The notes under the pieces were generated by a model. The model saw only the letters and a program-made list of their open reading frames with translations, ran no database searches and had not been told where the DNA came from. 64,000 bases of DNA from assembly GCF_030936135.1 (NCBI RefSeq), contig NC_082594.1:19522879-19586878 (forward strand), read 5' to 3'. The translations under genes and the position numbers were made by a program. This DNA comes from Gavia stellata. Its lineage: Eukaryota. Below, piece after piece: positions 3,061 through 62,599 of the stretch (within the stretch, counting starts at the first letter, position 1; each line of letters opens with the position of its first letter).

Positions 3061-4289
3061 CTTGTAAATTGTATTCAAATTTATTTGCTGATGTAGCATT
3101 AACTTAACAATATTATGTTATGTAGCGTTAGGACAGTAAAACTTTCAAAGTTCCAGGTATTTCATATGGATGATTACCTACTAGAAATTAAGCAGATAAA
3201 CAAAATAAGAAAACTACAGTAACGCATTCCCAGTAAAAGGAAGTTACTCTCTTATAATCGACCTAGTGTATTTATAAAAATAAGTCACAATCTACTTTTC
3301 CCTTGGCGATAAAAACAATTTGGACAATGAGTAACAAACACTTTCTGTGCAGGAAGTCAACATAATCCAACTTTTAATCTTATTATTTATTTGAGTACAG
3401 TTAATATTATCTCAAATATTATAAAGCTCTGTATAATATTCTCTTCAGTAGTACAGAGAAGGATTCAGAATTTTTTTAAAGTGCCTGCAACAAAAGAAGA
3501 GAGGTGATTTGAGAAGTTGAAAGAGAGACTTCCCACACATGACCTTCATATTAATGCAAAGTTTCAAATGTGTCCATCTAAATACAAATATTTTACTGCA
3601 CATATTTCAATGCAACACTTATCATTTTCATCACTGCCTTAGTTTCTCATGGAAACTCTACAACCATGCTGCCTGCTAGCTTCTTCCTCTCAGCCAGCTT
3701 CTTCTTTTTAAATCCATCCAAAAAGAAGCTTGAAGACTGCAGAAGTTTCAGTGATAACCAAATTCCTACAAGTGTCATAAAACATGAATGAATTCAGGTA
3801 GGAGACCCGCAGTGACTTCCTCACTTAGGAAGAAAAAAAGAGACAGAACTGCTGCCAAAAGCCTGACCACTCAGCCCTGCTACCTCAAACTAGTCCCAGG
3901 GCAACTAACTCTTCTGCCGGTGCGTAAGGTGTGTGTGTCACAGGGAACACAGAGAAAGAAGGGGCCAGGGGACAAAGGACAGACAACCACAGCAGCCCAG
4001 GCTCAACAGTCCTGCTGATCAGGAGATAACTTCTTAAAGCTTCCTTGTTCCCAGGAGACCAGTTCATGCCAGCTCTCGCTTAATCAACCAAAGCTTGAAA
4101 CGGTAACTAGGAGAAACAGCAACCAGGAGAAACAGCAAAATTCCCTTAGAAAAATGTTTTTCAACTGCCGACTGTTCTGAGACGCCACTGGAAGTTCACA
4201 ACGAGGTACAGACTGCAGGGTTCACACGCTATTTTTCCTGTCACCTTTTGGAGACCCTTTAGAGGCACCCTGCCAGTTTAAAGCTTCCC

Positions 4290-5230
4290 TTAAAGTTCAC
4301 GGGCAGCAGCACCTTCATGCCAACCGAAAGAGATGGCAGGGCTGAGGCTGATCCGTCCCGGGGAGGCGAAGAGGGCCGAAGGGATCCCCCCCAAAGGTAG
4401 CCGGTGGGGAGACAAGCACAGCCACGCACCTCAGCCGAGCCGGGGGCCGAGCCCGGGGGCCTCCCTTCCCCCGCGGACACGGACACCGCCCCAGCCCGCG
4501 GCACCCTCACAGAGGACGTCCCAAGCGCGCCGCCGGCTGCTGCCGCTCCCCCGGCCCCAAGACACCCACACCGCGACAACTCCAACCCGCGGCCCCTCAC
4601 GGGTACCGGAAAGGCAACACCAGCACCGCTCCTCAGGCCGCTTCCGCAGCAACACTCCGCTCTAGCCGCCACCCCTCTCCTTCTAATACAAACCTGCCGC
4701 CATCGCACAGCCTCCCGGCGCCACAGGCTGGGCACCGCCCCAGCGCCGGGCATGCTGGGAGTTGTAGTCCCAAGCCACTGGCTTTCCCGCCCAGCTACGA
4801 GGCGGTTCTTCGGCGCTCGAACTACAGCTCCCAAGAGCCTCAGCGGCGAAAAGGCCGTTGCGGGGCGTCAACAGTGAAGTAGGGCGCCCGCAGTAGTAGC
4901 TGCTCCGGTTCCTGCCCGCGACTGTCAGGGGCGGGAAGTAGGCGGCGGGGATCTTTTTAGGCACCTGGGCCTGCCCCTTGCTCCTCAGGACGGCCCGCAG
5001 GTGGAGGCGGCTCCTGGGTCCTCCTCGCGTCGCCGCTGGTGGCCCTTTTGGGGGACGGGGTTTCTTTTCGGGCAGCTCTGCTCCTGAGAGGCGGAAGGCC
5101 GTATCGGCGCAGTGTTCTTCAGCAGCTGTCCCGGCATGGTGTGTGAGGAGATTCCTGTTCAGTGAGCTGTCCGCAAGCCTTTCGGGGCGTGGGGTTTTCT
5201 GCAGGGGTGAGGCTTTGGACTTCTAGTGTG
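4290..5230. promoter_or_regulatory. CpG island; probable bidirectional promoter for CENPJ (-) and PARP4 (+)
   Basis: Abrupt GC- and CpG-rich block in otherwise AT-rich DNA, without a TATA box. It lies between the CENPJ start exon (3060, minus) and PARP4 exon 2 (9834, plus). The spurious overlapping ORFs on both strands are typical of GC-rich sequence. Confidence 0.7.
4960..5205 (+). other. PARP4: Putative PARP4 non-coding exon 1 (5'UTR); donor CAGGG|GTGAGG at 5206
   Basis: No protein-like ORF is present. A good GTGAGG donor at the 3' edge of the CpG island pairs with the exon-2 acceptor at 9832-9833. The TSS cannot be placed from sequence alone. Confidence 0.3.
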
Positions 5231-5584
5231 CTTTTATTGCGGCTACTTATACCCTTTTAATCTTTAAAGAGCTGCAGTAAGGGAGGAACGGAAAGAGAAA
5301 TGGGCAAAAAGCATCCCCCAGCTTTCTGACATTTTGCGCTTTAGGCATGCTCGGTCTTACTGAGAGGAATTAGTGTTTTCCTCTAAACTTCAGTAAGTGG
5401 TAGAGCATTACACGCCAAACACTTGTGTGTGGTACGTCGCTGGCTGTGACCTGTTCTTGCAGCTGTTGTGAGCAGGTATGAAACCGAGCTCTAGGTTGTA
5501 TAAACCTAGGGCAGCCCTTTCAGTTGTCTACTACTAGTTTTAATTTCCGCTGTTAGTTTCTATAGTTCCACAGGGCTCCTTCTG

Positions 5585-5660
5585 CTAAACTTTTCATCAT
5601 CTGCACTAGCCTAAACTTTTCATCATCTGCACTAGCCTAAACTTTTCATCATCTGCACTA
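5585..5660. repeat. Tandem repeat, 26-bp unit (ctaaacttttcatcatctgcactagc) x ~2.9
   Basis: Three near-perfect head-to-tail copies are directly visible in PARP4 intron 1. Confidence 0.9.
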
Positions 5661-8600
5661 ACTAGGCTTTGCTAGTTATGAATATATTGTCTACGTGATT
5701 GTCCTCAGACTGGATTCTGCATTAACAGTGATAAGCTACTGTGCTAGAAAATATAAGGGTTTGTACTCATGCTTTTGTAAAGCATGGTATCATATTCAGT
5801 CCCTTTGACATCTGTAGGAGGAAAACACAGTAGAGGTTTGTTGTCAGTTTACCTGCGCACTGAAAGCCTTACAGGACTACTGATTATTTGTGGTTTTTTG
5901 TTGGATGATAAAAATTTATTTTTGGCTCCCTCTCTGTGCTAAAAATATAATCCATTGCTAACAATGGTGTTGAATTTGTGGTTTGATCATGAAGTACAAG
6001 CTCGTGTGCTTGTGTGAAATCCTTTTGAGGCTATTGGGGCCTTATGGATCTCCACCAGCATAAACTAAAATTGAAAGAATTAAACCAGTGATAATTGTCA
6101 GCAGTTCCACTTTGCATAACTTCTTTATCTGGTGCTGCAACAACACGGTATTCCAGTTATAAAAGTTTTTATCAACACACAGATTAAATACAATAGTTTC
6201 CTATTCTGATTTTGAATTTTGGAAATTTTGCTGTTTCAAAAGAGTAAAGCCAAACATGGCTAAAATTCCTGGAGAAGTTTGGTTCTCTAGGGAAATAGAA
6301 GAGAGGCTACTATTCAGTGGTATCATTCAGCAACAATGAAAGAGAATAAAATCTTCACTCAAGGGAGAGAAAAGCTGCTGGGGACAGACTTTGAACAGGT
6401 TTTAACTCAATTTCCTGCTCTCTGTCAGGTATTCCAAAGTTCAGTTGTGCTTTAACAGTGACAACTTACTCCTCCTTCTAAATGCAGCAAGGGTTATTGC
6501 CCCTTATTGTGCAGCAGACTGCACTTTGCTTGGTTTACTTATTTGACTGGGTTGCTGTCCCTTCGGGCATTTTACAGGGAGTTATGAGTGTGTCCTAGTC
6601 CTTCCTCCCTACAACACCCAGGCTCTCCAGTTGTATTTCACACTGTTGGGAAAGCAGGAAGATCCTTCCGGGAGGGCAGCTGCCTGAGCAGGTGAGTGTA
6701 AGTGATTCGGCTCCCTCAAAATCTAAAGAGAGGAGTGGGATCAGGGGTTATTTAATACCTCGTGCTGGGAACAGAGAAGGGGGCTGTCTTTGCAGACAGA
6801 CTTGGAGGAAATGAATCGTTCAAGTTTACGCATTCCTTTCTGCTGACCTGGCTGACCTATGGTTTATTTACAAATGAGTGCTCACAATAATTTTTTTCTC
6901 AGTTCTCAGCAGCTTGATTTTCATAAGCAAATGTAATATGAAATACTTTTGTGGAGTTTTGCACCACATGTAGCTACCAATTTCAGTTCCTTCTGGTGTT
7001 TTCCAGATGAGATATGGATGTATGGGCAGGGCTGATGCTTGCAATTGGTTGTATGTATTTCATTGCCTTCCAATAAACTTTTTGTTTTGGCTGTTTGAAT
7101 AGAGTTCATTATTTCCTGAGGGGACAACTTCTGGTGATACTTTAGCAGTATCCAGAATCTGCTTTAGAGGCTATATTGAGAAAACTAGTGCACACAGAGC
7201 TCTAGTGAAGAGGGAGGCAGAGCCCACACCTATACTATGGTTATTAAAGGAAGCCTTTGGCAGTGACATGTTTGCCCTCAAATTAATCTATCTTGTTTAT
7301 AACAAGATTCAAAATCAAGCTGATAAAAGCAGCTTAAAATAAGACTTTATACCATGAAGTAGAGCTTCTTAAAGGTACAGTTTCCCACAGAGCCAAGTTA
7401 TAGCAAAGCTGCATTGTAAAAGATTTTTATCACCTCAGATAACAAAGTATCTTGTGAAAACCTCTTAGTTAAAATACAGAGACTTGGTTTTTTGTGTGAG
7501 CAGAGAGTACTTTTATGCCAAAAGCACTGCTAATGCCATAAAAAACAAAAACGAGCCACAGAATATAGGTATATAATGACCTCATGTGCCCTTTGATCTG
7601 TTGTCTGCCTGACCTAAATGCACATATTACCATTACAGAGTTGCCAGTTCTATCAGGTGTATAGTGCAGTAAATGATTTGGGCCCTTCCTACAGGTTACC
7701 TTTCTGAGATAAAATTATACAGACATTTATAAAATTGTGTCCGATAGTGCTGATTTTCCGGGTTTTCATGAAACCCCAAATTCAAATGAATTATGTTGCT
7801 CTCTCTCCTTGACTAACTACTTCTTGTTTTTTAGCTAGTAATTTAAGTTATTCCATGGTAGCTGGCCATCTGATTCCTTTTGTACTGTACTGAAGAACAA
7901 CTTTACTTGCATACATTGAAAATCAAATAGGCCATAGAGTAAGAAAATAAACACATTCCTTAAACGTGGTATAGGTAACATACTCTAAATCTCACCCTAA
8001 AATTACCTCAGGCTAATATGTTTTTGTTGGGTTTTTTTAATCTGAAACCTTATCCTAATCATCTGCTCTAGACTTGGGTCCTTGATAAATTAATCAAACA
8101 ATATTCTTATATTAAATTGCGAAGTGCTGTTGTCAGTGCCATTTAAACATTTCCTCTGCATTGTTACTGTCTCTTGGTTTATTCTCCTTCCACACTACAG
8201 TGGAATCTTTCTGCAGGGTTGATGTAAAGATTTTGTTGACCTTGTAAAGGCTTTGGTGCAATTTGACCAATACTGATTTTTAAACCAGAAGAACCTATAG
8301 GGTAATTAATTTTTTTGGGTTTAGTCCTAAGAAATTGGTAAAGAAACTGTTCTAATAAATGTTTCCTCTTTTGCACTTTCATAGTGCAGAACAATGTGAA
8401 TTGGTAAATGAATGCAAGTAGTTCAAACAGCATCTGCTTTCCTTTTTGCAGTCATTAATGTAGATGTTTATTTACAGAAGCAGGAGGATAGAAACTTAGT
8501 CAGAATTTGCAGTCTATGTGGGAGCTCTCATTAAGTTGGAGAAAGGTCATTTTTGCTCTGAATCCCCTCCCCAAGAGAGAGGGCACTTAATATCAGACAT

Positions 8601-45680: not shown

Positions 45681-46649
45681 GTATGTTTTCTATATAATAC
45701 CGTGTTCCCACTAGCTTCTCTGTCAAAAGACTCTAAATGCTGTAACCTTGTACGTATCAAAACCAGTCTTCCTTTTGCTGAATAATTATTATTCTTTCAC
45801 AGTAGAGCTAAAACTATTATTTTTGTCATTATTTTGGTTTCTTCTGCAATATAGCAAGTTATTTTCTTTTTCTATCTCTCGTATTGCTTGTCCTTAGTTT
45901 ACAATCAAAGTTTGTTAATCTGTGTGTTCCTGTTGTGATTTGCTACAAGGGTTTGTAATTCCTGATAGCGCTGTGGGAGCAAGACAGGTCAGAGGACAAG
46001 GCTAGATGAAGAGTACTCTTCAATCCTTGGTGCATAAGCCACAGAACCCTTTCTTATAGAAAGTAAGGATGCCGAACTATAGCAAACTGGCCACTCTAGC
46101 CATGGATTGCTGAAGTAATGGATTTTGTATTGGCAAAAGTCATTCTAGGGAAGTCTGTGTCAGGTGGAAGTCACAAGGAATGCAAAACCTGAAAAATCTC
46201 TCTTTAATACTGCAGTAAACTATGGAACGTCTTCATTTGTTCTCAGTATTAGAACAGTGCTAGGAGAAACAACAGCTTTGCAGCAAATGGAAAGAAATAC
46301 ATATAAATGACAACCTTGAAATTCAAGGGTCAGTAAGAAGAGTTTTCAAATGGAAAGCTCTATCATGATAAGCAAGATCATATCAGTTGGATTAAGTATT
46401 AGACAGGGCACAGAGAACGGGAATTCATCTGACCAAATACGTGTGTGTACATTTAGCAATAAATCAGTTACATTTGCCTTCCTCTCATGATCAATGGAAA
46501 TAAAGAGATATTTCTAGAGCTTGATTCATCTCATCCTAAAGTTAAATACCTAAAACAGTTCAGATTAATGTTCTCAAGAGGTCTTCTTCTCAGCACTGAT
46601 TATAGTGGTTACCTATAGTCACTATTTCAGATTCAAGGATCACTTCCTC

Positions 46650-47935
46650 CAAGCTCAAGAGCACTCTATCCCAATGAACAGGAAGTCAGGCAAAAATGCG
46701 AGGAGGCCTGGTGTGAACATGGATGAACAAGGAACTCCTGGAAAAACTGAAATATAAAAGGAATTATACTGACAGTGGGAAGCAAGGACAGGTAACCTGG
46801 CAGGAATATGGAGGCACTATCTGAGCATGCAAAGACATCGTTAGGAAAGCCAAAGTCCACATGGAGTTGAATCTGGCAAGGGATGTCAAAGACAATGTGA
46901 AGGGCTTCTGTAAGTACGGAAGTGGCAAAAGGAAGACTGGGGAAAATGTAGGCCTGCTGTTGAATGGGGCAGGGGAACTGGTGACACAGGACATGGAAAA
47001 GGCTGAGGTACTGAACACCTTTGTTGCCTCTGTCTTTACTAGCAAGACCAACCTTTGGAAAATCAAGGCCCCAGAGACCGGGGGGAAGTTTAGAGTAAGG
47101 AAGATGCACCCTTGGTGAAAGAGAATCAGGTCAGGGAATACTTAAGCAAACTGGACATACATAAATCCATGGACCCTGGTGGGATGCACCCACAAGTGCT
47201 GAGGGAGCTGGCTGATGTCATTGCCTTGCACTTTCAAAAAATCTTTGAATGATCATGGCAATTGGGAGAAGTGCCCGAAGACTGGAGGAAAGCAAGTGTC
47301 ACTCCTATGTTCAGGGAGGGCAAGAAGGAGGACCCAAGGAACTACAGGCTGGTCAGCCTCACCTTGATCCCTGGGAAGGTGGTGGAGCAGCTAATCCTGG
47401 AAACCATTTCCAGGTGTATGAAGGAGAAGAATGTCACCAGAAGTAGCCAGTATGGATTCACCATGGTAAAGTCATGCTTGACCAACTTGATAAACTTTGA
47501 AAACGAAATGACTGATGTGGTAGATGAGGGAAGAGCAGTGGATATTCTCTGCCTGGATTTCAGTAAGGCTTTTTGACACTGTCTCCCATATGATCCTCAT
47601 ACAGAAGCTGATGAAGTATGGGCTGGATGAGCAGACAGTGAGGTGGATTGAAAACTGGCTGAATGGCCAGGCCCAGAGGGTGGTGATCAGTGGCAGGAAG
47701 TCTAGTTGGAGGCCAGTGACTACTGGTGTACCCCAGGGGCCAACAGTGGGGTTTGTCCTGTTCAAAATCTTCATTGATGTTCTGGATGATGGAACAGAGT
47801 TGTACCTTCAGCAAGTTTGGTAATGATGCAAAACTGGGAAGAGTGGCTGATACACCAGAGAGTCATGCTGCCATCCGGAAGTACCTCGATAGGCTGGAGA
47901 AATGGGCTGACACGAACCTTATGAAGTTCAAATAG
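46650..47935 (+). mobile_element. CR1 LINE internal fragment (ORF2 reverse-transcriptase region), degenerate, both ends truncated
   Basis: Several plus-strand ORFs (46861-47118, 47262-47576, 47524-47823, 47726-47935) carry RT-like motifs (FREGKKEDPRNYRLVSLTLIPGKV..., [20 protein letters not shown]). They are split by frameshifts and stops. No CR1 3' hairpin or octamer tail follows. Confidence 0.8.
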
Positions 47936-49166
47936 GAGAACTTTTACAGCTTTTTATAGTGTCCAAAACAGTTCTTTCATGATCCAATTTACTATTTCAT
48001 ATGGTATATTAATATAAATAAAAGTAGGCCTGAAGGAAGAATTGAATGGAGATGCTGGATAAAACAAGGATACCTTTTCCTGTTTTTACTGTTTCATCTT
48101 CATGTCTACATTATTATGAAAAAAACAATACCAGTAGCATATGTACATTATAAGAGTTAGTTTTTTCTGGAAGTATTGCTTTCCTGAGTAACGACTACAA
48201 CATTTGCAATTAAAGATCAAAACAGAGACATGCATTCCAAAAAACATCTGATTAAAAAGCAACTATAAAATGCAATGCTGTGAAGTTATTGGAAATTCCC
48301 AGGTCAAGGACTACTTTTCAAAATAAGGTAACTCAACTGAATCAATTTAAATATCTTTCTGTAATGCACCTGAATATTCCATCTAGTACATAACAGAAGC
48401 AATATTCAGAGGAAAAATTATGTTACAGATTAGTAAGGGAACACCTGTGTAATTTCATGAACTAGTTGTTTGCAAAGGGTGTCTGTCATTCTGATTTTTA
48501 TGTATCTGTTTTTTCAATTCTTCAAAAGATTCAGTTTCCTCTGATGATGCCTCTCAAGAAACAGACTTCTAGAATGTTATGTTTTAACATAAACTGTAAA
48601 TATAATAGCTTTAATCTCATTTCTAGTCTAGGATGACTTTTGACCCAGTGGAACAAAACATTGCAGACATCTTAAGGCAAAAGCACATATACAACACAAT
48701 GCAGTACCGTGCAGAAATACCCAGACTAGCCCATTCAGCTTGGGACTATATTATGCTATGTAATTTGTCTTCTTAACATGATTTTGCAGAATGCTATGTA
48801 CTTTAAGCACATCTATAATAATGGTTATGTTTGCTTTCCTTCAAAGGGTGGCAATAGGATTCTGACAAAAAGAACCGCCCAAGATTTGGATTTTATTTCA
48901 ATTATGTGGATTTGAACAAATTATACATACAAATACATACTGTCCACCTTTATATTTCATGTGAATCTAATCACATTGTCCCTCAATATAGTAAAAAATG
49001 TGAAGTTACACTTACTGGTTTTTTGTATATACTGAGTATTTTTAATGTACTGCGTTATCTGCTTATTCCCTGTTTTCAACACATTTCAAACTCACAAAGA
49101 AAAAAGCACTGTCTCTATAATGCCAGAGAATTTTCAGGTTTGTAACTGTGGTGCATTTTAATTTAG

Positions 49167-49316: not shown

Positions 49317-50464
49317 GTAACTACATTTCATATATGTTCTTACTGCTAACATTTTTGGTATATTACCCAGTTGTCGTGCTGTATTGTATGTGTAACCATA
49401 TAATAATTGTTCATGAAATCTGTTCAATTTTTCATTATTTTGAATATAATTAATGCCACACAAGTAGGGTGTGGAATTTTACTATAAACACAAAAATTTG
49501 GAGGAACCTGTCCCAAAAATAAAGTACACTTAAAAATACCATGAGTGCAGCAGAACTTTTGAGAGACAATATGACAATACAGACAACTTCTCCCTTCCAG
49601 AAGAAACTAACACCTGTTAGAGCATACTCTTATAAGAATATGCTAGTGTAGATGAAGCTTTAAATTCAGCTCTAAGAAACTGGGGGCAGGGCGGGGGGAG
49701 TTTCAAGGAAAATCAAGGTACTGATGCATAACTAAGTCTCCACTAGCAGAGGGGTACAGCCAAAGCAGACTACTGGGAATGGGGTTAAGCATGACTGGAA
49801 GAAGAGGACATATTGCTAGCATGCAATGGGACAATCTCTTCAATGAGGGGGGAGCAGTGAGAGAAACTTGAACTAGTGAAATGGATGTTTGCTGGTTATG
49901 GTACCTCTCTCTTGACTTTGGAAACTACAGGAGATGCCCGCATCAGTTAGCCAGCAGATATAATTCTGTCACTCTGTAAAATCTTAAGAGATTAAAGCTT
50001 TACATCTCCAAATTGTGTAGGAGACTCAAGAAAATCACTATTTGTCTGTTAAATTGTGTTGTGCATGACCATGATGTGCATTTAATACAACTCAGGAGCA
50101 TCGTCTCAGCCTGTAGTCTGTAATGTATTAAGATTGGGAGCTATTTAGAACGGTATCTGGGTGTGTATTCTATAACTTAGGTCAACTCATATAAAGCCAT
50201 TTTCCTTATCCTTTGGCCCAAGAATTCCTAGGCAGAAGAGTACAAGACGTCTATGGTGGTGTATGGTGGCAGTATAGCCCAGGCTCATTAGCTTGTATGC
50301 AGCAGCTACTGACCTCAGGTGGTACATGTGCTGAAATTGCAGCACAAGCAGGAGCCACGCTTCGCTTTGTGCAGATCTATCTTCTGTGTATGTACAAAAG
50401 TATTGTACAGTGGAACTTGCTTGGCTCATAATCATCGTTATGTTAATAATTTTTATCTTAATAA

Positions 50465-52132
50465 TGTGAAATACCTCTCCCCTCATATTTTGTCACAGTC
50501 AAATTCTCCTCTGAATTTGTCCAGTGTAAGGTAGAATAGGGTAAGACATTTTTAGTTTAACTGATATATTATTTTCATTTTGAACATATGAATGACAGTA
50601 TAATGACACTGCACACAACATAAGAAGAAATGCTGTTTTGATTAAAAAGAGAAAAATATCTTAACTAATTCTGGAATTATTTTGTTTCCTTGTAATTTTA
50701 CTAAACAGGCATGTTGCCCAGCAGTAGATGAGATTTATTCAGCTGATTTCCTAAGTGAGAAAGGTGAACCTGAAAGCTTCCAATTTCAACCTGAAGAAGA
50801 TTCTGTTAGTCAAAAGAACATCTCACCAAAAAACATGGCGCAGGGCTTTGTAAATGTTTCTGAACTTGGAAGTAGTATTTGCGGTCTCAAATCAAATTTC
50901 AGTTCTGATAGAGGTATCACAAAGGAAAGATCATCTGGAACAAGGGCATCTTCACCATATGACCTTCATCAGCTGGAAGCTGCTGAACCTTTCTCATTCC
51001 AAAACTTTGGTTTTAAACCTAAGCCAGGAGAAGGAATTGATCTGACTCAGCAAAAATCACTTCAGACACCTGCACTTACAAAATTAGATGTTTGTGTGGA
51101 TGTTCCTGAACCTGCTCCTCCTCCTCCCCCTCCCTATTGTTTTCAAAAATCAGTGGGAGGCACGAAACAAGTTTATTCTTTTTGTGCTGCTCCAGTGCAG
51201 GGTTTATTCTCGTTTGGTTCACCTACCCCTACATGCACAAATTTTGAAAAGACTAATGTTGAAAAAGAAGTTACTCCCAAATTTCCTGTTTTTCAAGCTA
51301 ATAGAAAAGAAGCATTGCCACGGTTAAGGTGTAAGAAAAAGGCAATACATCAGCATGATATTACGGCTCCTGAAGAAGAATTTACTGAGAAGTTTAAGGT
51401 TGTGGTAAGTCTTCCGTCAGTCGTCTTTTATATATAGGATGCTACACATGTCATGTTGAAATCCAAGCTGCATTCAGCTGATGAAAGCTGCCTTAAACAT
51501 TTGTGTTTCAAGGTTCATGGATGTACAGCCAAAAAAGAACATGGTAAGATGGTAATGAGGCTGCTTTCCAAGTCAAGAAATCTGAACCTGAAATGCAGAA
51601 AGCATTCTTTTTGTCTGGTTGGTTTTTAGTTATTCTTTTTCAAAGTGATAAATCTTATAGTCTGAATTCTGCCACTTGTTCCTTACTACTCTAATAGGTG
51701 ACTTTTAAATTGAATTACTTTGTATCATGAACTAGTAGCTATATGGGTAATGGTGGTAGAATAAGATTCTTAATGAACATTATTCTGTTTGTTCAGGAAC
51801 AACCTTACTGTTTTATGCCAACACAGAGGATTCAACAAGGACTTCCGTTCAGTTCAGTAAATAGGAATGAAATTCCTGAGCTCCAAAATCAGGTGCAGTA
51901 CCCATCCTCTATTCATGCATTACCTAAAAATAAAATATGAGTAGAAGGAAAAATTATCTTCAGCCCTGCCCTGAGATAAACATTTTGTACATGATTTTGT
52001 TTTCTTTGCTTTATAAACTGGTTTTATAAAGAGCATAATGACATCAAAGTCATGCTATTTTTTGTTCCTTTCATGGGCAATCCCTCATGCTTAAGAAACA
52101 GTATAAAATCAGAGCCAACAAGTGGTAATAAC
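50465..52132. repeat. Tandem duplication unit A (contains PARP4 exon 31)
   Basis: Clear homology by eye between 50519-50708 and 52164-52353 (offset ~1645) and between 51703-52132 and 52480-52905 (offset ~777). Confidence 0.8.
50709..51404 (+). CDS. PARP4: PARP4 exon 31 (696-nt low-complexity S/P-rich exon)
   Basis: ORF 50682..51437. Acceptor ttactaaacag and donor GTG|GTAAGT. Phase 0 at both ends. Corresponds to the long divergent exon of human PARP4. No motif-level conservation is visible, as expected for this region. Confidence 0.75.
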
Positions 52133-52905
52133 ATCTCCAGAGTCAAATTTTACTCTGGATTTGCCCTGTGTAAGGTAGAACAGGGTAAGAAATTTTTATT
52201 TTAAACAATATATTTTTATTTTCATTTTGAACATACAAATGACAGTAAAATGATAATGTGCGTAATACAAGAAGACATACAGTTTTGCTTAAAAAGAGAA
52301 AAATGTCTCACTAACTCTGGAATTATTTCATTTCTTGTAATTTTGCTAAACAGGAAGTTTCTCCAGCTGTAGCTGATGTTTGTGCAAATGCTTTCCTAAG
52401 TGGGAGAGAATGAATCTTTTTCAACCAGAAAAAGAGGTTTCTTTTTAAAAAGAGGAGTGTTTTTTAAACTTTTAAATGCAATTAGTTTGTATCATGGTGT
52501 AGTAGCTGCATGGGTAATGGTGGTACGATTCTTAGTGAACATTATCCTCTCCAGGAACAATCGAGGTGCTTTATAACAACAGAGAAAGAAAGGATTCAAC
52601 ACAGAATTGAGTTGACTTCTGTAAACTGGAAAGAAATTTTTGCGCTCCAAAATCAGGTACAGCACCCCTAGTCTCTTTGTGCATTACTTAAAATATAGGT
52701 AGAAGGAAAAAATAGTTTCACTTCAATCCTGTCCTGAGATAAAGTAAAATACATTTATAAAATGTTTATGAACAGATTTTACAAGTGTATGATGACATCA
52801 GTCATACTATGTTTTATTGCTTTCACGGGCAACTCAGCAATGGATATGTAAGGAACAGTATAAAATCAGGGCCAACAGGTAGTAATACACCTCCAGAACC
52901 TTTTT
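52133..52905. repeat. Tandem duplication unit B (degenerate copy with ~870-bp internal deletion)
   Basis: Shares the unit-A 5' intronic flank, the acceptor and the first ~90 nt of exon 31, then jumps to the unit-A downstream intron. Estimated ~80-85% identity. Confidence 0.8.
52354..52440 (+). pseudogene. Decayed duplicate of the PARP4 exon-31 5' end (pseudo-exon)
   Basis: ttgctaaacag|GAAGTTTCTCCAGCTGTAGCTGATG... parallels ttactaaacag|GCATGTTGCCCAGCAGTAGATGAG.... It has an in-frame TGA after ~20 codons, and the remaining exon sequence is deleted. Confidence 0.7.
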
Positions 52906-53228
52906 ACAGCCTCCATCAGTTTGCAGCTTGGGGACTTCCTGGGACAAGTATAAGAACATATAGAGGAAGCTACATGGAAGAAGTGGATGCAAATAATGGA
53001 CATTATGCAAGAAAATAAAAAGTAGTTCAGTCTTGGGAGGATTGGACTGAGAGACGTTGCAGCAGGAACTTCCCCTGGACAGTCAGACCAATTGCTAGGG
53101 AAACTGAATGAAACCATACTGTCCAAGAATCCTGCAGGTAGGAGTCAGAGCAGGTAATGTTTAGCTTTGTTGTTTTGGAATGTCCCTTGCGGTGGGAGAA
53201 GTCCCTGTTCCACATAACCCATTGCCAG

Positions 53229-53303
53229 TTTGCTGAGCTTACCAACTTAAGGGGTGAGGTTGTGATCAACAATCAGATACTGTGGGTCGCACAGTCAATA
53301 TCT
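53229..53303 (+). CDS. PARP4: Candidate PARP4 exon 32 (FAELTNLRGEVVINNQILWVAQSIS)
   Basis: Acceptor cccattgccag and donor TCT|GTAAGT. Phase 0 to 0 is compatible with exon 31 (out 0) and exon 33 (in 0). Only weak similarity to the human segment before EDGFWKL. Other small exons may exist in 51405-54693. Confidence 0.3.
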
Positions 53304-54693
53304 GTAAGTAATAAACAGAAGGAAGTCTTCAAAAGTATTACATGATCCAAGTGAAGAAGCCACCATGGGATGCTCTCAGTGGAGACTCCTGTTGTTTATT
53401 GGCAGAGATTGGCCATTCAGCATGGTGATATATGGAATTCCCTTTTGCTGGGAATACATCCTGTACACTAGATTCAGTAAGTCTTCCAGATGCCGCAGCT
53501 TTGTGTTCCTTTGTGCAGCAGAATCCACCTAGTATTTGCATCTTCATAACTCTTTCTTGCTATTTTTTTAAATGTAATTTGTGTAATTAATGTGTAATTA
53601 ACTTTATTTTATGCATGAAGTTTGTATGTGAAAGTACTAAAGTATAGCCAACCTCAGCATCAAGAAGAGATATATTTTTCCTGTATTTTTGACAGGTCAC
53701 ATTTGTCAAATTGTTTCTAAACATTGAACCATTACCATATGCCACATGGATACAGTGGGAATTAGAGTAGTAGACTTGTGATTGACTCTTCTGGGAATTA
53801 ACTCCCGAAGTGCAGTTCACGATTTCTTCTTTTTCAGCAGAATTACCAATTGATGAATTTTAAAAAGAAAAGTTTCTCATGTTTTTTTATACTAATTAAA
53901 AATAATTTGCATAATTTGGATAATTACTATCTAAACATCCATATAAAATCATATATTATCTTCTAAATTACCTTAAATGAATGGTTATAAATTTGTGTCT
54001 ACAGTTACAGTTTTCTAAGACATAAAGTTGCAAGTACAGGTAGAGTTTCAAAAGTGTTTAATATTGAAGAATAAGTACTTGAACATCCTGTTGAAAGCCC
54101 GTCTCCCATCTGACCTGAGGGTAGCAAACCATTTGGCAGATAATTTTAATCATGAGTTGTCTAATTTTTGTCAGGGTAAGTCAGATAAAATAGGATTGGT
54201 TTTGTTAATACTGCATTTAACAACATATATAGTAAATGTAATAATTTTATAGAGACTTCGCATTCGCAGCAGAGGAGAGGGATCCTTTATTGTTTCTTTT
54301 GAGTAAGAGGAATGCTTATTTTTTAGCGCCTTTAAAAATAGTTTTCAGAAGGAATTTTTTTGAAATAAATTTGAAAAGGCCAGTGTTGTCATTGTGCATA
54401 CTTTATATGGGAGTGATTTCAAAATGACTTTGTTCTTACTGTTTAAGGGTTTTTTACAAGGTAGGCTAACTACAACATTCCAGGTCAATTACAGACATTT
54501 GATGGTATATCAAAGATTTTTGAAGTTTAATATTTGAATCACCTAAACTGATTATGTGGTTTTCAGTTTTTGTCTTTGTGTAAGATTTTTAAAAAATATT
54601 TAAGGTAATTCTCCTATGTCTTTTTCATTCTTGCCAAATACATTTTCAGCATTCTGAATCTTTGGCTTATCCATATCTTTGTTTATTCCATAG

Positions 54694-54796
54694 GATGGCT
54701 CTTGGAATCTCAGTCCACAGTTGGGAAAAATCTTGAAATTTGATGTTGATCATTTAATTAACAACTTCCTTATTAGAAAAGGCATTCAGTCACTTG
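54694..54796 (+). CDS. PARP4: PARP4 exon 33 (C-terminal MVP-interaction region)
   Basis: Acceptor tattccatag and donor CTTG|GTAAAT. Encodes DGSWNLSPQLGKILKFDVDHLINNFLIRKGIQSLG, matching human DGFWKLTPELGLILNLNTNGLHSFLKQKGIQSLG. Confidence 0.85.
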
Positions 54797-55673: not shown

Positions 55674-55806
55674 GCCCAAATGGAAAAGAAAAGCTCCTGC
55701 AATTGATTGCTACTCTTCTTGTGCTACAGTTCATACGCTGCACAAAAGAATTGAAAGGGATAGTTTTCAAAACACTGATGAAACTGGATGATTCATCTAA
55801 TTCAAG
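55674..55806 (+). CDS. PARP4: PARP4 exon 34 (MVP-interaction region)
   Basis: Acceptor cttcttccttag and donor AAG|GTGTGC. Encodes PNGKEKLLQLIATLLVLQFIRCTKELKGIVFKTLMKLDDSS, matching human VKGRECLLDLIATMLVLQFIRTRLEKEGIVFKSLMKMDDPS. Confidence 0.9.
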
Positions 55807-57182: not shown

Positions 57183-57333
57183 TGGTGTTCATTGGGCTTT
57201 TGAGTTGATCAAGAAAGCAGTAGAGTGGGTAAGAAGAGTTGAGAGGCGATTTCCATCTATTTGCTATCGACTTGAACTTGGGAAAGACTGGGATTCTGCC
57301 ACCAAGAAGATATTGGGTATCAAGTTTATCTAA
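57183..57333 (+). CDS. PARP4: PARP4 terminal coding exon (stop TAA 57331-57333)
   Basis: Acceptor ttctacacacag. Encodes ...WAFELIKKAVEWVRRVERRFPSICYRLELGKDWDSATKKILGIKFI*, matching human WAFEAIKQASEWVRRTEGQYPSICPRLELGNDWDSATKQLLGLQPI. Confidence 0.85.
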
Positions 57334-57781: not shown

Positions 57782-59279
57782 TATCTTCATAACATATCAG
57801 TGTTTTGGATGGTTTTATAATTCCTACAGTGTGCCTTGAAATGCAAACAGCAGTACAGTTATTGTTCTCCTGCACTGGTTTTGTTATTGGTCATAGGTCA
57901 ATTTGTGAATACACAGGTCAGTTTTGTTAGGAGGAATGAGTTCTCTCTTTTTTTTCTGCTGTTACTCTGTATTCTGATTTTATTCTGATGAAAACTAACT
58001 GCTTAGTTGTATTTTATACCGGACCAAACACTGAAGCCTAATAACAAAACCAGACTAAAAGTGATTTATTTTAATTTAATGGGCTTTTCACAGGTGTTTG
58101 AATGAACACATTACCTCTTCTAAATTAAGGAGCTGCACAGAATCACACTTTGGTACTTTGTGATCTGAGGAAATGTAGTGGGAGACTTAATACAGTAGCT
58201 TGCACTGAGGCAGGATCCAGTGTGTACAGAACATATGCCACACTTTTTTGTTCAACCACTGAAAATACTCAGAAGCAGGAGATTCCACAGCCACCATAGC
58301 TGATGTGTTACACTGCCCTAGCAAACAGAGAATGCTCCTTAGCAGTAATAGAAAAGTGTTGTAAGAGGTTACTAAGGAAAAGTGTGGAATCTCTTTCACA
58401 GAAGTTTTCACAAGAATTTAAGCCAACATCTGCCAAGGATGGAGTAGATACGCTTGATCTTGTAATGAAGGTTGCTAAGAGGGATATCCTGAAGTCCTTC
58501 AGTTTCTAAGGTGCTCTGAATTGTTTTCACTTGTGTAAGATACTGGCTTTTCTTAGTAAATAATACAAAGGAAAGGTTTGTACTACACTTACTATTTGAG
58601 AAGAGCTAGGATATGGGTTTCTTAAGATCTGGAAAGACTCTTTAATGTAGACAATGATAAACTAGCTTCTCAATCTGCTCTTAAGTCTTTGTATGGTCAA
58701 TTGCTGCATTACTTAGCGTTACCTTAGAAAGTAAGTGCTGGCAAAATTACGAATAAAATAAATTTATTTTTTCCTTCACTGCAGTTAATTATTCAAATAG
58801 TTTGGTGTTTGCACTGTTACAATGATACATCCTGTATGGGTATGTACAAAAAGTATACATTCATTCTAAAGCCTGAGTTTTATTTGAGTGCTGTGTGTTC
58901 TTTAAGGAACTGTTTCTGAGATACACTATAACACTCTGGCTCTAGCAAAGCCAGCTGAATAAGCAAATAGGGTGTGGTTTATTTGCTTTTTCTTACAAGA
59001 TTGCCTTTTTTTCTCCTGCATGTTATATAACAGTAGCTGCGCTTACCTATAGGCAATTACTTTAACGTGCAAAATACTATGAACTGTAAAAGGATTCTTT
59101 TTCCCCAGCGAGAAACCCCATTCCCCAGCAGGACCTGAGGTGTCCGTGTACATCCTTCCTGTGTTTCCCCAAAGCCCCATCCGGCTGGGGGCAAAGACTA
59201 CCTTTGTTCTGAGATATTCAGCATGCTCTGTCTTTATTTGGACAAGCCGGGCCCACCCGGGCACCGTATCTCCTTGGCA

Positions 59280-60560
59280 GAAAGGTCAACAGCGTGAATG
59301 TGCCTTTCGGTGCCTCCAGTCACCGGTAACCACCCCCCTTCTCCGGAGAAGGGCTACCGCGCCAGGCAGCGAAACCTCACACGGGGGCCGAGCGGGGGTT
59401 CGGTCACGCTTTCGAGGAAGGGGCCTGCGGGCCAACGTCCAGACAGGCAGCTCCGGCAACCACCCGGCGCTCGCCCCTCGCCGTAGTGCCGAGACCCGCG
59501 ACGGGCAGCACCGGCGGGCGACAGCGGAGCCTGGCAGGAACGGCCCGAGCGGGACGGCACCGGGCTTCCCGCTCCCGCCGCCCAGCTCTGCGGCGGGCAC
59601 CGAGCGGGGGGACAGCCCGCCCCGGGGCGAGCGGAGCCACCGCCTTCGGAGGGCGGGCCCGGCGGGAGCCCGCGGCCACCGGCAAGAGGCCGGGCCGCCC
59701 GCAACCCCCTCCGGACCCTGCTGGGGCCTCCTGCTGCCGCCCCCACCCATTGGCTGCCGCGGGCCGCCGCGCTGAGGGCACGAAGGCCTCCGGGCTCGGG
59801 GCCCCGCCCCTGTGCGTCATGGGCTAGTGGGGCGCCGATTGGCTGCGGCAGCTGCCTCGCTCCCTCCTCGGCCGGCGGTGGATGTCGCAGCCGCTTTTCA
59901 CCGTTGTCGTTTGAAATTCGGCCCAAAATGGCGGCGGCGGCCGGGAGCGGGGCTGAGGCGGCGGCGGCCAGGCTGGAGGGGGCGGAGGAAGAGGAGGAGA
60001 CGGCGGCCGCGGCGGAGGATGAGGAGGACGGGGAGGAAGACGGCAGTGGGGCTGGCAAGACAGCGGGCGCGGCGGCGGCAGCCGGCGGCGGCGGCGAGAG
60101 CGAGGAGGAGGAGGAGGAGGACGTGTTCGAGGTGGAGAAGATCCTTGACGTGAAGACCGAGGGGGTGAGTGCGCGGCGCCGCCGCCTGTCAGCGCGGCGC
60201 CCCCGGCAGCTCTCGTGGGGCTGCGGCGGGGCCCCCAGGACGGTGCGACGGCGGCGGGTCCCTCAGGGAGGCTGCTGCGCCGTGAGGCGGCGGGGCTGGC
60301 GGGCAGCCCGGCCGCCCCCAGATTGTGGCCGGCGGCTGCCCTGGGGTCGGGTTTCGCCCTGCGCCCCGACGAGGTGCACGGCAGCACGGGAGTCGGGAGC
60401 GGTTGTTGCCCGTGCGCTGGCAGCAGGGTGGGCCTGCGTGCGCCTGCTCGTCTCGTGCTTTTCCCTCGCTTTCTGTGCGCGCAAGGCTGTGCAGGCTGCG
60501 CAGGCAGAGACTGCTCTTCAGGCAGGTTTTCCTGCACGGTTCTTCTATACTTGGGCGAGA
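59280..60560. promoter_or_regulatory. MPHOSPH8: CpG island / MPHOSPH8 promoter and exon-1 region
   Basis: ~1.3 kb of GC- and CpG-rich sequence surrounding the MPHOSPH8 start codon. The many overlapping ORFs on both strands are GC artefacts. Confidence 0.75.
59928..60164 (+). CDS. MPHOSPH8: MPHOSPH8 exon 1 coding part (Ala/Glu-rich N-terminus plus chromodomain start EDVFEVEKILDVKTEG)
   Basis: ATG at 59928 within ORF 59904..60575. Donor GAGGG|GTGAGT at 60165. Encodes ...EDVFEVEKILDVKTEG, near-identical to human MPP8 EDVFEVEKILDMKTEG (chromodomain start). The poly-Ala/Glu N-terminus mirrors human MAAAAAAAAATEAGEAEDA. Confidence 0.85.
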
Positions 60561-62599
60561 ACTATACAAAAATAGTAGTTCCGTTATAATTGTAATTTAA
60601 AACACGTTGTGCATAATTTTGCAAGGAAGTTTTTTGTATCTTACAGTTTTGACTAAAGAGACTAAATCTGGAGTATCCTTACTAGGGTTTTTTTGTCTGC
60701 ATTGTTAAACTGGTCTTTGCTCTTATGGCTGAATCGCAGTAGTGTTTTGATTTAAAGTGTTTGAGTGCAGAAATGGGCAGGATTGAATATAATGGAGAAC
60801 TTGGAGGTGGTTTCAAAGTATGTTTAGTGAGACTATATTTACTGGTATATAAAATGTATAAAGACTTCTTAAGAGAGACTTCTTCCAATTGAAATAACTA
60901 GCTGTAGTCATCTTGGCCTTGTTTAGACAGAAATATCATACCTTCTCATCTTTCTTTGAAAGCAGCCTAGACTGGTTGAAGTTCTTCTAAAACTTCCTAA
61001 GCCTCAAATACAAAAAATAACTAACACAGCCTTTTTTTTTTTTTTTTAATGATTTTGTGTCTGAAAATTGTTTATTTTAACTAATTTATGGGTTTCATTT
61101 TAGGCTTCAGTCAGGTACGTGATAGTACAGAATTCTGCCTGTTTAGTGTAAAACAAGAGTTTTGAAACCCTTAGGTTGGAGAACCTTCAGAACAAGAATT
61201 TTTTAGATATTTGTGATGATATCATGATTGGACTGTGTCTTGGCTGAAATATCTTGATGACTTAAGAATGTTATGCTTTCAACGTAATACAGTATTTATA
61301 GCTTTACCTGTATGAAGTATTGGTCAAAATAATAAGTCAGGCATGAAAACAAGAGGACTCCTTTTTTTCTTTTTTCTTCCCCCTCCAGTGATGGAACCTA
61401 AAAACTGCATACTGGCAGTGGGGGAGGGAGTCATACATTCCAGACACTTATAAAGAGTACCAGAATACATCAAGTAACATCTCTTAAAAATGTCATTGGC
61501 ATGTGCTGGTAAAAAGGTGTGTTATGCCCCCTCTTTCTATCCTCCTCCTCCAAACAGCCCATTCTGCTGCAAGTTCTGAGCTGTATGCACTTGAGGTTTC
61601 CAGGCTGGGTCAGTGCAATTAGCTTTACTGTATACGTGTGCGTTACCTGGTATGTGTTGGTTGTAGCTTTGTAGCCTGGGCTCCAATTGCATCAGGTCAC
61701 CTTTCTGTTGCTCTTCAATGGGGGCCATGCTCCTGTGCAGGGCAATGCTCACACCCAGTCTCAACTTCTGAAATGGCTGCAAAAAGCTGTGTGTTACATT
61801 CAGTGGAGTATATTTTAGACTGCTTTGGACTAGTGGTTCCCAGCTTGCAGGTTCCCAAGTCTGGTACAAAGTCCAAGCAGATACACCGAGTTGACCACTG
61901 TCCAGCACAGCATAAGGCCAGTCAGTGTGTTCCTGTGTCACAGTTGCAGAAGTGGGAGAGCTGGAGGGCACCGCACAGAGAAGCTCTTGTCATTCGCAGT
62001 CCTGATGTTGCTGGAGCTGGTAGTAGTGGTAGCATGAGAGACAGCACCCCTGGGATGGGACTGGGCTGAGGAGTTAGACCTGCTGATAAATGAAACATTA
62101 ACATGGCCTACTTAAGAGAACAAGCAATAAAAGTTTGGAAATGTTTCCTCTCTATATAGAAAGCCTTTCATACTGCTCTACAATGATACTAAAACAATAG
62201 GCTCCAATACAAATCATGACATTCCCCAGTGGAAATGGGTAACCTTAACTCTGCTCTTTAATGACATGGTGATACCCCTTTCCATAGGAGTTGGTTCTAG
62301 CCCATCACTAGTTCTCGCAGAAGTTAGAGCAGTATAAAAATGGTTGGAAGTGTTCTGTTATTTGTAAATGGTAGGAAAGAAATAACAACGTTGAGTAAAA
62401 TAATGTTGACAGGTGAGTGTAAGGCTGTGTATTTATCTTTAGTATGATGATCAATTTCCTGTCTTCACTTAAGCTGCTTTTTTGTATCACTCTCTATGTA
62501 CTGGATGTAGAGTCATTCAACAGCCAAATAGTCTTACGTTTATAATAGACTATATTTTATAGAGCTTTCTCAATTATTTAAAAAAGGACTTCACATTCA

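Follow-up and report, generated by a model that had tools for sequence, protein, structure and literature searches.

Tandem exon duplication is common in animal genes, where it leaves unannotated duplicate exons or pseudo-exons in introns, and it is the source of many mutually exclusive exons. The PARP4 locus described here resembles such cases in that exon and flanking intron were copied head-to-tail within one gene, with phase and splice signals kept at the outset and decay following. It departs from the usual tandem exon duplication in that the copied unit comprised a pair of exons that differ greatly in length and in that decay was complementary; because the inner copy of each exon has been lost, the working gene is most likely a chimera that takes its large exon from the first copy (unit A) and its small exon from the second (unit B). 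There is also a likeness to duplication-degeneration-complementation, in which each copy loses a different part and both are then needed for the original product. Unlike in that scheme, the exons of PARP4 belong to one transcription unit rather than to separate genes or regulatory modules, and nothing new has been partitioned, the ancestral mRNA being most likely restored. The locus is a new instance of a common exon-duplication history, slightly unusual in its complementary loss of two exons and in the relics that allow relative dating.

[quoted passage not shown] 2014 (PMC4038475) report positive selection on the counterpart of human exon 30 in primates, bats and other vertebrate pairs, as well as variation among vertebrates in both the sequence and the length of this exon. 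The bird large exon is the same exon, likewise with a dN/dS above 1 and with variable sequence and length. Neither intragenic duplication nor pseudo-exons in PARP4 are mentioned in the passages of PMC4038475 consulted. At the C-terminus, human PARP4 carries the MINT (MVP-interaction) domain, which spans residues 1562-1724 (PMC12280208).

We analysed a window of 64,000 nt, the whole stretch of Gavia stellata contig NC_082594.1 under study, to which all positions below refer unless another sequence is named. Self-comparison of 50000-53600 revealed direct repeats only, lying on two diagonals, and no inverted repeats. On the first diagonal, 52138-52408 of unit B matches 50494-50763 of unit A with 80.2% identity over 273 columns at an offset of 1644 (blastn E 5e-67); on the second, 52468-52887 of unit B matches 51701-52130 of unit A with 71.5% identity over 446 columns at an offset of ~765-767 (E 5e-61). 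The original prediction had postulated an old tandem duplication inside PARP4, to be seen as diagonals at offsets of ~1645 and ~777, and the significant diagonals found at 1644 and ~767, with a K80 of ~0.31, bear this out. Its coordinates were right to within a few tens of bases, but the left edge lies at 50494 instead of 50465, the junction at 52137/52138 and the right edge at ~52897; the identity of ~80-85% that it gave holds for the first block (80%) but not for the second (only ~71%). The repeat is genuine: adjacent copies on the same strand, similar far above chance, form a two-unit tandem segmental duplication inside PARP4. Its outline is as follows.

50494 to 52137, + strand: unit A, located by the blastn diagonals, with edges set by pairwise alignment.
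52138 to 52897, + strand: unit B, ~880 nt shorter than unit A.
52453 to 52467, + strand: internal deletion junction of unit B, inside an 18-nt tandem repeat; the same junction is found in the bird sequence L007 (see below).

Homology starts with CAGTCAAATT (at 50494 and at 52138) and ends with CTCCAGA (at 52137 and at ~52897). Since these edges are sharp, the duplicated unit is 1,644 bp long and was copied head to tail without spacer; pairwise alignment of the junction at 52137/52138 gives a microhomology of at most 2-4 nt and no flanking repeat. Unit A comprises the 3' portion of the preceding intron, followed by the large exon, an intron, the pseudo-exon A2 and ~245 nt past A2, and unit B is without ~880 nt of this, approximately the equivalent of 50820-51700. 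The 18-nt tandem repeat (AAAAAGAGGAGTCTTTTT, 2.2 copies) occupies 52429-52468, exactly at the deletion junction of unit B, and is kept in other species. When both units were searched against the 64-kb window, no third copy of either was found. A 34-nt similarity between 50742-50775 and 51560-51593 (family D7) was considered as an older third copy and rejected as a chance match, as it has no blastn support.

The exons and exon copies of the two units, together with the coding exons of PARP4 that follow them, are listed below.

50709 to 51404, + strand: functional large exon, 696 nt, phase 0-0, open in frame 0, AG/GT.
51797 to 51892, + strand: A2, the counterpart of the small exon in unit A, 96 nt, open, phase 0-0, bounded by cag and gtgcag; translation EQPYCFMPTQRIQQGLPFSSVNRNEIPELQNQ.
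52354 to 52452, + strand: B1, defunct duplicate of the large exon covering its first ~100 nt, acceptor kept, TGA at 52411-52413, donor lost.
52555 to 52656, + strand: B2, functional small exon, 102 nt, phase 0-0, AG/GT; translation EQSRCFITTEKERIQHRIELTSVNWKEIFALQNQ.
54694 to 54796, + strand: next PARP4 exon (DGSWNLSPQLG...), from the downstream frame scan and the joined frame.
55674 to 55806, + strand: penultimate PARP4 exon, likewise from the downstream frame scan and the joined frame.
57183 to 57333, + strand: last coding exon of PARP4, with its stop TAA at 57331-57333.

Unit B past its deletion had been taken for intron only, and the unit for part of one exon. Both points have to be revised: the stretch after the deletion holds B2, the real next exon, so that the duplicated unit was a two-exon cassette, whose other small exon, A2, had been missed. 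The large exon, B2 and the three downstream exons join into a single open frame of 394 codons ending in TAA. The C-terminus of this joined frame aligns with residues 1564-1707 of human PARP4 (E 1.3e-48), and the alignment starts inside B2; the human PARP4 matches include PDB 11jf (chain 11jf_P), 9bw6 and 9bw7. B2 is orthologous to the human exon and encodes the end of a linker and the first residues of the MINT domain. Because the human match begins inside B2 and the MINT domain spans 1562-1724, B2 is a functional exon that marks the start of the vault-docking domain. Its AG/GT boundaries and open frame are intact in all six sequences that reach it, and B2 shares its motif W-x-x-(I/L)-F-x-L-Q-N-Q with the PARP4 C-termini of turtle, lizard, snake and tuatara, in which W-x-x-(I/L)-F-x-L-Q-N-(Q/E)-D-G-F-W runs across this exon junction. 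In L007 (positions 1777-1878 of that sequence) the Trp of the small exon is replaced by Leu (NWKEIF to NLKEIF), the exon being otherwise intact with AG/GT; the conserved Trp is not absolutely required, since Leu occurs at this position in L007.

A Pfam scan of the spliced C-terminus returned no family at E values up to 1; homologues of the C-terminus in the protein collection carry PF26156 (PARP4_MVP-ID). With a C-terminal MINT domain homologous to the human one, the gene is PARP4. At the orthologous locus of Limosa, the gene model immediately upstream lists BRCT, WGR-like_PARP4, VIT and VWA domains. No spliced bird PARP4 product covering the junction of the large and the small exon was found in the protein collection. 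Elsewhere in the window, 4001-6000 and 58001-62000 have a G+C content of 0.49-0.54 against ~0.35 in the remainder and flank the gene on both sides; they are probably the CpG-island promoters of PARP4 and of a downstream gene on the + strand, the Limosa orthologue of which has Chromo and Ankyrin domains.

Orthologous sequences were obtained from two Logan contigs (L001 and L002), from a JGI contig (L003, with L004 and L005 from the same species) and from KZ506694.1 of the shorebird Limosa lapponica baueri (L006). The first three were found through large-exon ORFs on bird contigs in the protein collection and L006 by a search with the C-terminus, and a profile search added L007 (P0014, in five sequencing runs) and L012 (P0015). 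A metagenome scan for further species yielded only two more contigs, both from the L003 species. L001, L002, L003 and L006 share 85-89% identity with the window across several kb, and in all of them the duplication gives paralogous secondary matches; L007 and L012 are 89% identical to each other and 73-78% identical to the window. As no more than a guess, from its depth in the tree and its occurrence in five sequencing runs, L007 could be galliform. The duplication or its relics are present in all six of these other bird sequences, as the full arrangement in L001, L002, L003 and L006 and as relics in L007 and L012. The full arrangement comes from independent assemblies: Logan supplied two contigs, JGI three from a single species, and NCBI the Limosa scaffold KZ506694.1.

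L007 shows a single large exon and a single small one, without internal repeat. The interval between them retains two remnants of unit B, namely ~40 nt of its version of the upstream intron and the end of B1, where both the TGA and the deletion junction are those of the other birds; L012, which is 1.1 kb long, ends in the same ~40-nt relic. The retention of these unit B relics indicates that the L007/L012 lineage descends from the duplicated state; it subsequently lost the sequence corresponding to 51714-52288 (A2 with the unit junction) and to 52331-52384 (the B1 acceptor). Two other length differences were seen at the locus. A stretch of ~1.16 kb (53392-54552) is present in L001 and L003 and mostly in L007 and is missing from L002 and Limosa; its absence is probably a deletion shared by sisters, because L002 and L006 have the same GT to GG change at the A2 donor and group in trees. 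The stretch 46001-48000 is a compositional outlier (GC 0.44, GC skew +0.16, AT skew +0.13), and 46863-48006 may be a lineage-specific insertion, as it has no counterpart in the Limosa locus.

In both blocks, units A and B are separated by a K80 of 0.31-0.33, about three times the 0.08-0.14 measured for orthologues. Even the closest A-B pair (0.25) is more distant than the most divergent pair of orthologues (0.17); there was thus one event, with no sign of gene conversion. In the neighbour-joining tree of the second block, the A copies are split from the B copies plus L007 with a bootstrap of 1.0. The region had been called clearly duplication-prone, which is not supported: what we find is one event common to all birds examined, with the A copies clustering apart from the B copies and no recent copy. 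We infer that the duplication goes back about three times as far as the divergence of the five closer species and that it precedes the branching-off of L007. It would predate much of crown-bird diversification if the closer species belong to different neoavian orders and L007 lies outside them. The comparison with orthologous introns that had been suggested as a means of dating has given a relative age from six other bird sequences, with an upper age limit set by a rough clock argument.

The large exon of unit A, rightly recognised in the original prediction as a real exon of 696 nt and called exon 31 there, is bounded by cag/GCATGT and GTTGTG/gtaag and encodes a disordered, fast-evolving region. 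It is open in L001, L002, L003, L007 and L012, and Limosa L006 has an assembly gap there. It evolves faster than the introns around it, its mean pairwise identity being 0.82 and theirs ~0.92, and among the window and L001-L003 its dN/dS is 1.3-2.5 in all six species pairs, with p<0.05 in four of them. These values fit the positive selection reported in mammals and other vertebrates (PMC4038475). The large exon of L002 (~1100-1225; aligned with ~51190-51211 of the window) has ~43 extra residues, in which a unit of ~14 residues, SATRSVAPMQGFxFG, is repeated in tandem three additional times.

In unit B, the copy takes in 216 nt of upstream intron and goes on through the acceptor aaacag (52348-52353) into exon-like sequence of ~100 nt. 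The original prediction had placed a dead duplicate of the large exon's 5' end here, with its acceptor kept, an in-frame stop and a deletion of ~870 bp, and this agrees with B1 except that the deletion is ~880 nt. The TGA at 52411-52413 is common to L001, L002, L003, L006 and L007, and with the donor lost in all species B1 carries the lesions of a pseudo-exon; in L003 the acceptor itself reads CAA. Cryptic use of the 52353 acceptor, leading to nonsense-mediated decay, had been thought conceivable. The acceptor is indeed kept in the window, but its use would need a new donor, because the ~880-nt deletion removed the original one, and A2 is the likelier candidate for cryptic inclusion. Being in frame (96 nt), A2 would not trigger nonsense-mediated decay if included. 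B1 was also considered as a conserved functional decoy, and this was rejected: its identity of 0.951 against ~0.92 for intron, over 94 columns, lies within sampling noise.

A2 is most likely a pseudo-exon, although the A2 of the window, alone among the sequences compared, has no lesion. Its splice signals in the window (ttgttcag/G ... CAG/gtgcag) are equal to those of B2 (ctctccag/G ... CAG/gtacag). In the other birds, A2 has a 1-nt deletion in L001 that causes a frameshift with stops, a donor changed from GT to GG in L002 and Limosa L006, and a 16-nt deletion of the polypyrimidine tract in L003; it is deleted altogether in L007, and L012 is too short to show its state. In total, four of the six other bird sequences have an A2 that is disabled by frameshift or donor loss or is deleted, and in a fifth its polypyrimidine tract is gone. 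The L001 frameshift and the L002 donor change come from short-read Logan contigs, and the donor change is independently confirmed in the Limosa assembly. Where B2 has Trp and Phe, A2 carries Arg and Pro in all Neoaves-like species. The pN/pS values of A2 (0.61) and B2 (0.71) are based on small counts, and substitution patterns do not separate the two.

These observations bear directly on the possibility that A2 is a working alternative exon in this species, either as an in-frame cassette of 32 residues or mutually exclusive with B2. Mutually exclusive exons have classically arisen by tandem duplication of exons, and A2 has much of what would be required: it is open in the window, close to B2 in length (96 versus 102 nt), in the same 0-0 phase and flanked by AG/GT signals as good as those of B2. 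Against this, the two copies are not both intact across species, given the A2 lesions just described; the pairwise identity of A2 (0.864 versus ~0.92 in flanking intron) is no better than that of an intron; and the conserved Trp and Phe are lost. Nor is the chance survival of a neutral 96-nt frame improbable, with P at 0.2-0.4 for a comparable branch free of lesions as a rough estimate from the lesion rate in other lineages, and the intact state of A2 in the window is compatible with chance. We regard a working alternative exon as distinctly unlikely, and the claim that A2 is still spliced in this species, and perhaps in that of L003, as about equally so. Were the latter true, PARP4 would have an isoform with the first MINT helix duplicated or replaced by a variant without the conserved Trp and Phe, and such an A2-containing isoform could alter the docking of PARP4 in the vault; mutually exclusive use of A2 and B2 in particular would change the first MINT helix of one isoform and might weaken its binding to the vault.

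The reading closest to the original prediction, that duplication yielded no more than a dead pseudo-exon made of the large exon's acceptor and 5' end and that the remainder of unit B is intron homologous to the downstream intron of unit A, describes B1 well (acceptor, ~100 nt of exon-like sequence, TGA and deletion). As an account of the whole repeat it is very improbable, and as stated it is refuted by the joined frame and the human alignment: the second homology block holds an exon in both units, and B2 is required for the frame into the MINT domain, matches human PARP4 from residue 1564 and is intact in all species. False expansion of the repeat in this assembly, which had been named as a possible error, deserves practically no weight. 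Nothing was found in its favour, the copies differ by 20-29%, and it is refuted by the recurrence of the same arrangement in independent assemblies or contigs of four other species, with relics in two more. Equally negligible is an interspersed repeat or transposable element that resembles an exon by chance, as the prediction had already held; nothing was found to speak for it either. The copies are strictly adjacent, on the same strand and collinear with the intron-exon-intron-exon order of the gene, where a transposable element would be expected as dispersed copies without collinearity with host exons; there is no other copy in 64 kb, and an Rfam scan of the whole window gave no match.

We favour, with a probability of roughly 0.87, a two-exon tandem duplication of 1,644 bp that was resolved by complementary decay of the inner copies. 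One old non-homologous head-to-tail duplication would have produced the order E-large, E-small, E-large', E-small', and since all four exons have phase 0-0, their full inclusion would have been in frame. Before the split of L007, E-large' (now B1) would have gained its TGA and lost ~880 bp including its donor. After the loss of B1, the only product with an intact MINT domain would have needed splicing into B2; E-small (now A2) would then have been redundant, losing its conserved residues before being disabled or deleted independently in each lineage. In the mature mRNA, the large exon donor (51404/51405) would be joined directly to the B2 acceptor (52554/52555), and the present intron of 51405-52554 would hold both relics and the duplication junction. 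That the large exon is spliced directly to B2 with A2 skipped is most likely.

The locus matters mainly for annotation, since gene predictors and human readers alike can be misled where acceptors and small exons each occur as a similar pair inside 2 kb. The most likely gene model joins 51404 to 52555, and A2, as a decoy in frame, might be included by mistake. In Limosa KZ506694.1 (L006 1-12408), the public annotation breaks PARP4 up into a 1129-aa and a 133-aa model separated by an antisense model of 142 aa; there is a gap of Ns in the large exon, and B2 is in neither PARP4 model.

Knowledge of PARP4 or of vault biology is unchanged by these results. The exon involved is one known for positive selection; as a wider form of the distinctly unlikely reading above, the ancestral duplication may once have doubled a fast-evolving, presumed pathogen-facing disordered exon before decay set in. 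With relics across birds, the PARP4 locus shows cleanly, and in a form that can be dated, how complementary decay followed the tandem duplication of two exons.
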